Positions 1,249 through 41,470 of a stretch of 41,470 nt of DNA are shown piece after piece. Under the pieces are notes generated by a model, which made no database searches, was not told the origin of the DNA, and saw only the letters and a list, made by a program, of their open reading frames with translations. This DNA is from a virus. Lineage: Duplodnaviria > Heunggongvirae > Uroviricota > Caudoviricetes. How positions within the stretch are numbered: the stretch's first letter is position 1; each line of letters starts with the position of its first letter. The stretch spans positions 1 through 41,470 of the IMG/VR virus record IMGVR_UViG_2690316195_000001; one strand, 5' to 3'. The translations under genes and the position numbers were made by a program.

Positions 1249-1689
1249 ACGTAAACTTTTTCCGGTTGTTGTCGATAGCTCTATATCCCTCAACCGGAAA
1301 ATAATAATAGTAAAATGCTTAGCCCTGCTAATAATCGCCTAATCCAAACGCCTCATTCATGTTCTGGTACAGTCGCTCAAATGTACTTCAGATGCGCGGT
1401 TCGCTGATTTCCAGGACATTGTCGTCATTCAGTGACCTGTCCCGTGTATCACGGTCCTGCGAATTCATCAAGGAATGCATTGCGGAGTGAAGTATCGAGT
1501 CACGCCATATTTCGCTATCAGGATTCTGTGTGATGGTTACATCGCCCGGCCCAGGGCTGTTTAGTCATCAGCGCTTTCTGACAGTGCTGAGATTTCAACC
1601 TGTTGCAGTAAAAATGAGTAGATATAAGGCAAGTGTGCTGCCAAACCCATCTTTTACGGGGTGAAGGTAGATTTCGTTTGAAGGGTATC

Positions 1690-1704
1690 TGGTGTCCCCT
1701 GCAG
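1690..1704. other. Probable prophage-host junction core (attR): TGGTGTCCCCTGCAG, reverse complement of a tRNA 3' end ending in CCA
   Basis: 15-nt string matches the 3' terminus of tRNA-Arg (argW) as recalled; sits between host cscB and the first prophage gene, on the end opposite the integrase. Confidence 0.55.
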
Positions 1705-1777
1705 ACATCTACTTGAGGCGGCAGGGGATTGATTGGAATGGTGTTTTTTAGATGTGAAAAATATTTTACCCGCTATT

Positions 1778-1978
1778 TTACCCATTGGCGCGGCTTAAGA
1801 GCTTATTTTTGAATTCACAATGGTCACGATATAACCATCTTGCTCGCCCGTGGATAACTTTGGCTTTTGGCAGGTCGCCGGACTTAATCCGGTCGTAGAT
1901 GAAGGTTTTACCAAAGCCAGTATCAGCCATGATGAATTTCAAATCAACTAGTGAATCAGGCTGTAGTTCGTGTTGCAT
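1778..1978 (-). CDS. torI: Excisionase / recombination directionality factor, AlpA/TorI family (66 aa)
   Basis: Small winged-helix-like protein (MADTGFGKTFIYDRIKSGDLP...GRARWLYRDHCEF) typical of AlpA/TorI regulators of P4-type integrases; terminal position matches torI in E. coli K-12 KplE1/CPS-53. Confidence 0.7.
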   Translation of the reverse strand: MQHELQPDSLVDLKFIMADTGFGKTFIYDRIKSGDLPKAKVIHGRARWLYRDHCEFKNKLLSRANG

Positions 1979-2022
1979 GAGTGCTATCTCCGAATAGGGA
2001 ATCGAACCTGCAAATCAGGTAA

Positions 2023-2043
2023 TAAAAAACCGCCATCAGGCGG
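2023..2043 (-). terminator. Rho-independent terminator ending the leftward early operon
   Basis: Stem CCGCC/GGCGG (2030-2034/2039-2043), 4-nt loop, plus-strand A-tract 2024-2029 giving a T-tract on the minus strand; stop codon of ORF 2036..2218 lies in the loop. Confidence 0.5.
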
Positions 2044-2218
2044 CTTGGTGTTCTTTCAGTTCTTCAATTCGAATATTGGTTACGTCTGCATGCGCTATCT
2101 GCGCCCACAGCATCCAGTGGTCATAGCAGTCGTTGATGTTCTCCGCTTCGATAACTCTGTTGAATGGCTCTCCATTCCATTCACCTGTGACTCGGAAGTG
2201 CATTCGTGATTTCTCCAA
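2036..2218 (-). CDS. Hypothetical small phage protein (60 aa)
   Basis: Track ORF at the distal end of the early-left operon, same strand as neighbours; no recognisable family. Confidence 0.4.
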   Translation of the reverse strand: MEKSRMHFRVTGEWNGEPFNRVIEAENINDCYDHWMLWAQIAHADVTNIRIEELKEHQAA

Positions 2219-28922: not shown

Positions 28923-29770
28923 TGGCGGATTCGAATCTCAATGTGCCGGTAATCATCCAGGCTACGCGGCTAGATACATCAGTTCTTCCACGCAATATCT
29001 TCTCGCAGTCGTATCTGCTTTACGTTATCGCACAGGGCACTGATGTTGGTAACGTGGCTAACAAGGCCAACGAGGCCGGACAGGGCGCTTATGACGCACA
29101 AGTCAGGAACGATGAGCAGGATGTGATTCTCGCTGACCATGAGCAGCGAATTTCTGCTGCGGAAGCAACTCTTGTTAATCATGAGGAGCGAATCAGCCAG
29201 GCAGAATCAACTCTTCAGGAACATGAAACACGAATAGCTCAGAATGAAAGCGATATTGCGTCGCTTGATACCAGAGTTCAGTCGCTGGAATCGCAGGTTT
29301 CAGACCATGAAACGCGCATCGATGCTCTGGAGTATGCCACTACTCGCAAGAAGTCAGAGGTTGTTTACTCTGGCGTATCTGTAACCATACCGACAGCGCC
29401 TACCAACCTTGTTAGCCTGCTGAAAACGCTCACGCCGTCATCCGGCTCGTTGGCACCATTCTTCGACACAGTTAACAACAAGATGGTTGTGTTCAACGAG
29501 AACAAAACCTTGTTCTTCAAGCTGTCGATCGTCGGGACGTGGCCCAGCGGAACCGCCAACAGGTCAATGCAGCTAACCTTTTCAGGCTCTGTTCCTGACA
29601 CACTGGTAAGCAGTCGTAATGCGGCGACAACAACCGACAACATCCTGTTAGCTACGTTCTTCAGCGTGGATAAAGACGGATTTCTTGCCACAAATGGCAG
29701 TACGTTAACCATCCAGTCAAATGGTGCGGCGTTTACTGCCACAACCATCAAGATAATCGCGGAGCAGTGA
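28922..29770 (+). CDS. Tail needle (P22 gp26 homologue) with divergent C-terminal domain
   Basis: N-terminus [43 protein letters not shown] matches gp26; trimeric coiled-coil heptads; C-terminal 120 aa unlike P22. Confidence 0.85.
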
Positions 29771-40159: not shown

Positions 40160-40312
40160 TTCTTCTATCAGCTAATAATCAAAGGCATGAAGTCTATCAT
40201 CCAAGTCTCAATCGATCGATGACTTGCTGTGGTTGATGAGACAAAACTGATGCACACAAAGCTTTGCACTGGATTGCTAGACTTTGCGCTCTTCGATAGT
40301 GGTTAAGGTGGA

Positions 40313-41470
40313 TCACTCCACCTTTTCATCAAGCCAGTCCGCCCACCATTGCATCATTTCCCTGCGTTTATCGAGATACTGCGCATGGTTGTAAATCCCG
40401 CGCACAGAACCGCCGTTGGCATGTGCCAGTTGCACTTCAATAGCATCAGCAGGCCATTCGTGCTCGTTCATAATCGTGCTGAATTCATGCCTGAATCCGT
40501 GACCGCTTTCCAGACCCTCATAGCCGATTTGTTTGATCACAAGCAATACCGCGTTCTCGCAGATTGGCTTTTTCTTATCGTTGCGGCCGGCAAAAACAAA
40601 CTCTGATACTGGTTTGGTGATAGAGCTTAGCGTAGTGAGAAGTTCAACCACCTGGTCTGACATAGGAACCACATGAATTTTGCGTCCCTTCATCACACTG
40701 GCGTTGATAGTGATAATCCTGTTTTCAAAATCGACGTTATTCCATAGCATAGAACGAAGCTCTTTCGTTCTTAGGGCTGTATAGCGTAAAACCTTGGTGG
40801 CAATGAGCGATACGATACTTCCTGAAAATGTTGCAAGTGCTTTGTTGAATGCCGGGATCTGGTCGGCAGGTAAAAATGGGAAGTTCTTCTTGCGGTATCC
40901 CTTCATGGCGTCAGCAAGGTCAGGTGCCGGGTTATATTTAGCCCTACCAGTGACAATAGCGTAACGGAAAACCTCGCCGCATCTTCTGCGGGCTTTGTTG
41001 GCTCGCTCCATTGCACCGCGATCTTCAAATCTGCGGATTACTTCCAGCAGTTGCATCGGCTCAATATCCTGAATTTCAAGGCCGCCGATGATAGGTAAAA
41101 TGTCGTCATCAAACATTTTTGCAAGTTCAGTCGCATACCCTACTGACCAGACTTGCTTCTTGTGCTCGTACCATTCCTTGTAAATCGCACTAAAGGAATT
41201 GTTGTTAGACGAAGCCTTTTTCGCCTTTACCGGATCGATGCCAACCGAGATGTCTTTCCTCGCAGTCCATGCCTTATCCCTTGCCTCCTGCAAAGTCATT
41301 AGCGGATATTTTCCTACGGTCAGGATTTTCTCCTTACCGTCAATCTTGTAGCGAAGCTGCCATACCTTTTTCCCTGACACAGGGACATAAAGGTACAGGC
41401 CATTACCATCGAGAAGGCGGTATGGTTTTTCTTTCGGCTTTGCTGCTTCAATCTGCTTAACGGTGAGCAT
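40313..41470 (-). CDS. int: Tyrosine integrase, P4/CP4-57 type
   Basis: 385 aa; N-terminal arm-binding DUF4102-like region (KPYRLLDGNGLYLYV...WQLRYK) and C-terminal catalytic domain (R...HGFRHEF...Y); start codon is the last codon of the window. Confidence 0.9.
   Translation of the reverse strand: MLTVKQIEAAKPKEKPYRLLDGNGLYLYVPVSGKKVWQLRYKIDGKEKILTVGKYPLMTLQEARDKAWTARKDISVGIDPVKAKKASSNNNSFSAIYKEWYEHKKQVWSVGYATELAKMFDDDILPIIGGLEIQDIEPMQLLEVIRRFEDRGAMERANKARRRCGEVFRYAIVTGRAKYNPAPDLADAMKGYRKKNFPFLPADQIPAFNKALATFSGSIVSLIATKVLRYTALRTKELRSMLWNNVDFENRIITINASVMKGRKIHVVPMSDQVVELLTTLSSITKPVSEFVFAGRNDKKKPICENAVLLVIKQIGYEGLESGHGFRHEFSTIMNEHEWPADAIEVQLAHANGGSVRGIYNHAQYLDKRREMMQWWADWLDEKVE

Follow-up and report, generated by a model that had tools for sequence, protein, structure and literature searches.

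Two argW-matching fragments on either side of the torI excisionase gene in a P22-like prophage

The window, by which we mean the whole stretch of DNA analysed here (41,470 nucleotides), contains a P22-like (Sf6/HK620-type) prophage of roughly 40 kb. In STEC384, a 98.8%-identical relative, the annotation comprises an early-left operon, ERF/anti-RecBCD functions, a cI/cro region and P22-type head genes, together with a tailspike, gtr-like genes and intS. The left end of the window is a cscB-like transporter gene and the right end is the intS start codon. ARAGORN found no tRNA genes in the window, and argW lies just outside it; the argW sequence was taken from STEC384 and from K-12, in both of which the 3' part of the gene reads AATTGCAGGTTCGATTCCTGCAGGGGACACCA. 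The order in STEC384 is intS, attL, tRNA-Arg, with the window's own attL and argW directly past the window end. The recombination module and the gene upstream of it comprise the following features.

40313..41470, minus strand: intS, the integrase gene, recognised as an open reading frame and from its sequence, at the opposite end of the prophage from torI.
2036..2203, minus strand: lambda orf55 homologue, with which the early-left operon closes ahead of the recombination module (RefSeq CDS in STEC384; homology to lambda 29118-29285).
2027..2046, minus strand: intrinsic terminator after the orf55-like gene, abutting the fragment-2 block on its upstream side (terminator scan; common to lambda).
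1998..2013, minus strand: fragment 2, TTGCAGGTTCGATTCC, identical to the T-arm segment of argW, the 16 nt preceding the part of the tRNA represented by fragment 1.
1998-2007, minus strand: conserved core of fragment 2, GTTCGATTCC, 19 nt upstream of the torI ATG.
1986..1991, minus strand: Shine-Dalgarno region of torI, GGAGAT, its positions 87-97% conserved over 39 cassettes.
1778..1978, minus strand: torI, encoding an excisionase (recombination directionality factor) of 66 aa (listed open reading frame; RefSeq TorI in STEC384).
1690..1704, minus strand: fragment 1, the attR core, comprising the last 15 nt of argW (CTGCAGGGGACACCA; 15/15 nt match), annotated as the pseudo-tRNA 'pawZ' in K-12.

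The TorI protein of the window is 100% identical to HkaC of HK620, gp18 of Sf6 and TorI of K-12. Furthermore, torI adjoins attR and intS adjoins attL, the latter side being read in STEC384, which is the arrangement of the KplE1/HK620/Sf6 type. We consider it likely, jointly with the whole explanation developed below, that the prophage sits at argW by means of a KplE1-type module, torI - attP - intS.

Fragment 1 (TGGTGTCCCCTGCAG at 1690-1704 of the plus strand) is exact and occurs once in the window. The first-pass annotation had recognised it as the reverse complement of the argW 3' end and had placed the prophage-host junction there. Comparison with argW of STEC384 and K-12 confirmed an exact match over the last 15 nt, and the placement agrees both with the empty site and with the core known from the literature. 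Of 5,426 complete E. coli genomes, 1,471 carry the predicted empty site, in which the argW 3' end is joined to the left flank of the window (GATACCCTTC..., flank from 1689), with identities reaching 100%; this places the junction exactly at fragment 1. KplE1 is bordered by a duplicated 16-mer core, CTGCAGGGGACACCAT (PMC2951348), and Kapi1, which has a 17-bp att, shares one site with Sf6 and HK620, with attP between xis and int (PMC8787464). The identity at attR of the window is 15 rather than 16 nt, since the first base of the host flank is G and not T. IntS- and TorI-dependent excision with a crossover in the core is taken here from published work on KplE1 (PMC2951348) and Kapi1 (PMC8787464) and from the structure of virion genomes, and strand exchange by IntS must fall within the block of core identity. 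The HK620 and Sf6 virion genomes run uninterrupted from fragment 2 through torI to the core. Fragment 1 is thus the already known att core of KplE1, HK620 and Sf6, a textbook element to which the window adds nothing new, and the locus is a further member of this well-studied module, largely ordinary and no new kind of system.

The surroundings of the core contain three further elements.

1705..1715, minus strand: phage-side flank of the core, CAAGTAGATGT, a degenerate T-loop-like sequence (from comparison of relatives).
1696..1727, no strand: inverted repeat CCCCTGC (1696-1702) / GCAGGGG (1721-1727) with a spacer of 18 nt, one arm lying within the core (direct reading).
1762..1783, minus strand: a tandem pair of GGGTAAAAT repeats running over the torI stop codon, putative IntS arm-type sites of the attR P arm (from the sequence).

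At the core flank the relatives carry ATTCGATGT(A/C), as against GGTTCGATTCC in the tRNA, and the segment is presumably an integrase core-type (C) site. The inverted repeat, in which the core had been described as embedded, is real, with the correction that only one of its arms lies in the core, at the positions given above. It is kept in most relatives, across genera, at a spacing of 13-22 nt, and compensating changes occur where the core differs (CCCCTACA/TGTAGGGG in Rouxiella, TCCCTGCA/TGCAGGGA in Edwardsiella). As RNA it folds somewhat better than shuffled sequence (z = -2.3). The inverted repeat probably has a function, as a palindrome bound by a protein or else as a hairpin at the torI 3' end.

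Arm-type sites of IntS carry a conserved TAAA, and TorI sites on attL carry GTTCG, GATCG or GTCCG (PMC2951348). The GGGTAAAAT arm repeats become GCGGGCATAA in the g341c and phiEt88 clades, and the attL of relatives contains phased GTTCG repeats, the window's own attL lying beyond its end. On the P' arm, putative excisionase-binding repeats occur at +11, +31, +74, +84 and +94 from the core, positions that are constant across clades; these repeats read GTTC(G) in HK620, Midgardsormr38, g341c and L158, and TTACC or TAACC in phiEt88, L129 and L131. The switch between clades looks like an excisionase co-evolving with its sites in a fixed scaffold. An open reading frame of 43 aa (window 1654-1785, minus strand), annotated across the attP core as hkaB in HK620 and gene 17 in Sf6, has its start within the arm-type repeats (MGKIAGKI...) and reads across the crossover, and is probably an artefact of the repeats and not a gene.

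Fragment 2 (GGAATCGAACCTGCAA at 1998-2013 of the plus strand) is likewise exact and present once in the window. As proposed, it matches the adjoining T-arm segment of argW, over exactly 16 nt in STEC384 and K-12, and the separation of about 290 bp with torI in between corresponds to a gap of 293 nt (1705-1997) that holds torI (1978..1778). The joint tRNA segment is 30 nt, not the 31 nt first given, since one C is shared by both fragments. By arithmetic, about 2e-5 chance matches to an exact 16-mer are expected over the two strands of 41 kb, and shuffled sequence gave 0.05 and 0.44 matches even with 2-3 mismatches allowed. A chance match was rejected, both fragments being exact, unique and adjacent in tRNA coordinates. 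The window holds no further copies of the fragment-2 motif and hence no pointer of that kind to a regulator. Within the literature searched, a full-text query for the 16-mer returned only tRNA probe lists; the descriptions of the KplE1-type module found there pass over fragment 2, and neither its tRNA identity nor its conservation across genera came up.

The block TTTTTTATT(G/A)CCTGATTTGCAGGTTCGATTCCCTATTCGGAGATAGCACTC-ATG precedes torI in K-12, HK620, Sf6 and CUS-3, as well as in the 49 IMG/VR prophage loci that match the torI start pattern, a few of them with a single-base difference. It stands behind at least three different upstream contexts, each closing in a terminator hairpin. The layout of the cassette is terminator, TTGCCTG, (C)AGGTTCGATTCC(C), about 5 nt, GGAG and ATG. 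Just upstream of the T-arm box in K-12 (L005 10680-10735, ypdJ), in g341c (L110 2100-2160) and in many IMG/VR loci, we observed roughly the first 18 codons of another excisionase-like gene (MESHSLTLDEACAFLKIS), putatively a P22-type xis by its N-terminus. This stretch seems to be left over from an earlier recombination module whose place torI-attP-intS has taken.

Loci fetched by excisionase alignments from species-representative genomes, viral contigs and GenBank phages revealed that the motif extends well beyond E. coli. The sequence (C)AGGTTCGATTCC(C) precedes the gene for the excisionase in Serratia, Citrobacter, Pantoea and Edwardsiella, in many contigs of unknown host, and in Erwinia phage Midgardsormr38, Salmonella phage g341c and Erwinia phage phiEt88; it is present even in g341c and phiEt88, whose excisionases are 51% and 39% identical to TorI, respectively. 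The core GTTCGATTCC occupies -29..-20 relative to the excisionase start codon in at least 39 distinct cassettes from at least eight genera, and the motif with no more than one mismatch was found in 43 of 78 unique upstream sequences. After correction of mis-called start codons it ends 18-20 nt before the ATG, save for the upstream copy of a tandem pair in Midgardsormr38. Over the 39 cassettes GTTCGATT is 92-100% conserved, the left flank 38-90% and third codon positions 41-67%, with a sharp step in conservation at -30/-29, in a set made up of related, recombining phages partly selected on the motif, so that recent exchange could inflate these figures.

The motif persists across changes of excisionase and of integrase arm sites, and nearly all relatives found target argW-type cores. 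It is nevertheless altered in places. Small deletions have produced two junctions, TTGCCTG|GAGG in Dryocola (L016) and TTGCC|CGGAGG in L116, L119 and L124, and the motif has decayed in L132, L177 and L180. Its loss or decay in several lineages indicates that it is dispensable, as would be expected equally of a neutral relic and of an accessory element. The sole duplication seen is in Midgardsormr38 (L006, 2790-2825, minus strand), where two tandem copies of CAGGTTCGATTCCC stand 16 nt apart.

The comparison with tRNA genes beyond E. coli comprises one Proteus tRNA-Arg(CCU), with the T-arm ACAGGTTCGATTCCTGT. In this Proteus hauseri locus (L025, 2992-4567) an excisionase homologue is convergent with an intS-like 3' end beside tRNA-Arg(CCU); the ACAGGTTCGATTCCTGT T-arm has the stem variant that also occurs in the Edwardsiella and Pantoea stewartii boxes, and the arrangement of the locus is unlike that of the window. 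Two short contigs from metagenome-assembled genomes labelled Actinomycetes (L013) and Parachlamydiaceae (L028) hold enterobacterial torI cassettes that are 85-92% identical to the E. coli cassette, most likely through contamination or mis-binning.

Taken together, these data support a model in which IntS would exchange strands inside the 15-16 nt common to attP and the argW 3' end, rebuilding the tRNA at attL and leaving a pseudo-3'-end of 15 nt beside torI at attR. Fragment 2 would lie outside this exchange, as a second, older copy of the argW T-arm at the 5' edge of the excisionase cassette. Its tRNA origin is shown by 13-16 nt of identity, by its orientation, which is that of the core, and by a full T-arm hairpin in some lineages. 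That fragment 1 is the true attR core and fragment 2 a duplicate T-arm relic is, as a whole explanation, the one we hold to be likely. Fragment 2 may then be a scar of module assembly, produced when att DNA was duplicated or accreted at argW or when DNA beside the tRNA was captured, and since kept within a short conserved excisionase leader. Sequential integration at the same tRNA, which the first-pass annotation had offered as one origin of fragment 2, is possible.

As for why such a scar would be retained, the favoured reason would be that its sequence is specifically recognised, with a B-type core half-site contacted by the core-binding domain of the integrase as the most plausible form; a second possibility is that it may serve as a short linker at which phage annealing recombinases swap modules. 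The B-type half-site is favoured because the core specificity of the integrase and the target tRNA, along with the host machinery, are constant wherever the motif is present. In a regulatory reading, the arm-binding domain of the integrase would be anchored at the P1/P2 repeats at the torI 3' end and its core-binding domain would contact the box, looping or blocking torI so that the excisionase stays silent in lysogens. However, the C site of attP can change at positions where fragment 2 never varies, which weakens the integrase half-site idea. That the GTTCGATTCC box is a selected regulatory site copying the tRNA side of attB (the B site), or else a dedicated linker for module exchange, is for us an unlikely reading.

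Other proposals for fragment 2 place it in the control of the recombination genes. One is that it forms the spacer of a cII-activated, pI-type promoter, and the element in question overlaps its upstream end.

2010..2022, minus strand: TTACCTGATTTGC, a degenerate counterpart of the lambda pI cII box, TTGC-N6-TTGC (HK620 cII annotation; comparison with lambda).

HK620 is annotated with a promoter and a cII site (TTGCCTGATTTGC) here, Sf6 is annotated with pI, and the cII box of lambda pI has a homologous place after the orf55 terminator. However, the box in the window is TTAC-N5-TTGC and not TTGC-N6-TTGC: its spacing is N5, TTAC replaces the first TTGC in the window and in about half of the E. 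coli copies, and the second TTGC is absent in other genera. A scan for sigma-70 promoters over positions 1500-2700 found none. In addition, a promoter of the lysogeny phase before the excisionase gene would make the wrong protein, and the invariance of GTTCGATT would be left unexplained, so that we consider a pI-type promoter at fragment 2 quite improbable. From the comparison with lambda, the first four bases of the 16-mer (TTGC) may stem from an old cII box rather than from the tRNA copy.

Alternatively, fragment 2 could be an operator at which TorI regulates its own gene through GTTCG. Fragment 2 does contain GTTCG, one of the sequences carried by TorI sites on attL along with GATCG and GTCCG (PMC2951348), and the two tandem copies of the motif in Midgardsormr38 would fit an operator. 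In contrast, in phiEt88 and L131 the P'-arm repeats, in the same register, are TTACC or TAACC and lack GTTCG, and the upstream motif is still GTTCGATTCC. Autoregulation by TorI at fragment 2 is, in light of this, quite doubtful.

The first-pass annotation had read the two fragments as one contiguous tRNA segment split by the excisionase gene; that is, attP would once have held a contiguous tRNA block of about 30 nt, the halves of which were parted when the gene was inserted. The fragments do abut in tRNA coordinates in E. coli, with one shared C and the same orientation, and a contiguous TTCGATTCC...GGGGACCA block occurs in the attP of L159, a distant relative. Apart from L159, however, no unsplit block was found in the relatives, and none at the position of fragment 2. 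In most genera the core keeps its own T-loop-like flank (ATTCGATGTATGCAGGGG): the attP flank beside it reads ATTCGATGTATGCAGGGGACACCA in most relatives, a vestige of GGTTCGATTCCTGCAGGGGACACCA in the tRNA, and its fuller form in most genera is ATTCGATGT(A/C)TGCAGGGGACACCA. Fragment 2, for its part, keeps its own 3' T-stem strand in several lineages (CCAGGTTCGATTCCTG in Serratia; ACAGGTTCGATTCCCTGT in Edwardsiella and Pantoea stewartii). Because the two tRNA-like pieces overlap, they are duplicates and not complementary halves, and a simple insertion of torI does not fit; the near-abutment in E. coli, with its one shared C, is incidental. The T-loop flank at the core and the separate T-stem at fragment 2 thus speak against the split-segment reading, which we rate as very improbable.

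A structured element in the torI leader, such as an RNA mimic of the T-arm, is still less probable. Fragment 2 is part of a putative 5' untranslated region, its spacing to the Shine-Dalgarno sequence is constant, and its Edwardsiella and phiEt88 copies can form a T-arm-like hairpin. However, RNAalifold returned neither a conserved structure nor covariation (-1.36 kcal/mol), the 5' stem bases (CAG, AAG, CTG, TAG) vary without compensation, and ARAGORN and Rfam found nothing above threshold. Below threshold, Rfam matched the Salmonella sRNA candidate STnc130 to window 1928-2055 of the plus strand (23.7 bits against a threshold of 55); the match is antisense to the torI start and the T-arm box, and comes mainly from the bidirectional terminator hairpin.

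The weakest proposal, that crossover takes place at fragment 2 as an alternative core, which is how the CUS-3 record reads it, is almost certainly wrong. CP000711 does give TTGCAGGTTCGATTCC the labels 'attL core' and 'attR core', and the CUS-3 prophage is flanked by it as a perfect direct repeat of 16 bp. But IHE3034 carries a sequence 100% identical to the right end of CUS-3 and has torI and a second core past that 'attR core', and the virion genomes of HK620 and Sf6 include torI. Not one of the 5,426 E. coli genomes holds the chimeric junction of the 5' part of argW with fragment 2 and torI; the product would truncate argW, and there is no identity beyond the repeat to serve as the overlap region. 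The suggestion in the first-pass annotation that a tRNA-like recombination site was kept in the torI promoter region stands in part: the sequence is derived from the tRNA and is located 5' of torI, but a crossover there is seen in 0 of 5,426 genomes and the promoter tests were negative.

In the CUS-3 record (L002, CP000711) the cores are at 1-16 and 40192-40207, and the prophage was ended there. In the K1 strain IHE3034 (L193, 1690-2020), torI and a core follow the CUS-3 'attR core' and precede dsdC, indicating that CP000711 lacks both torI and the genuine attR. IHE3034 has lost 1 nt from the attR core that follows torI (CTGCAGGGACACCAT); the true repeat may have been overlooked for that reason, and excision could be impaired. 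In our view, the annotation of fragment 2 as a promoter and cII site in HK620 and Sf6 and its annotation as an att core in CUS-3 are both incorrect.

The duplicate relic has practical consequences. A perfect 16-bp T-arm repeat can be mistaken for an att site, as in the CUS-3 record, which trims off the excisionase gene and the true attR, and tools that call prophage boundaries from the longest direct repeat could make the same kind of error. In addition, a tRNA-derived 10-13-mer has been fixed before the excisionase gene in many enterobacterial phages while the excisionase, its sites and the arm sites changed. Were this sequence to prove a binding site, the module, whose excision is considered to hinge on excisionase expression alone, would gain a further point of control. 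The analysis corrects a reference annotation and raises a small regulatory question.

Compared with KplE1 (CPS-53), HK620, Sf6 and Kapi1, the window has the same gene order (torI, attP core, intS), the same core CTGCAGGGGACACCA and an identical TorI, and the arm-type repeats, the fragment-2 block 5' of torI and the inverted repeat are common to all. It differs in its host flank, which is a cscB-like transporter gene where those systems have dsdC, and in the 15 nt of identity at attR where KplE1-type systems have 16. CUS-3 (CP000711) has the 16-nt TTGCAGGTTCGATTCC and a right-end gene context identical to that of the window; its record reads TTGCAGGTTCGATTCC as the recombination core, which the present evidence opposes.

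Lambda has a homologous orf55 gene and terminator, then TTTTTT(C/A)TTGC, and the excisionase gene comes next in both. Lambda and the window share TTTTTTCTTGC, after which lambda has the rest of its cII box (GTGTAATTGC), GGAG and the start of xis, whereas in the torI cassettes that place is taken by some 25 nt containing the T-arm motif. The lambda excisionase is a different protein, and the order is xis-int-attP in lambda and xis-attP-int here.

Internal att scars arise from tandem accretion of integrative elements at tRNA genes. Fragment 2 resembles such scars in being an extra tRNA-derived direct repeat inside a composite element and in pointing the same way as the functional att sites. In contrast to accretion scars, the repeats enclose a single 66-codon gene and no second element or integrase, and the repeat at fragment 2 does not include the crossover segment. 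Accretion would be one conceivable route by which the second argW T-arm copy came to stand before torI.
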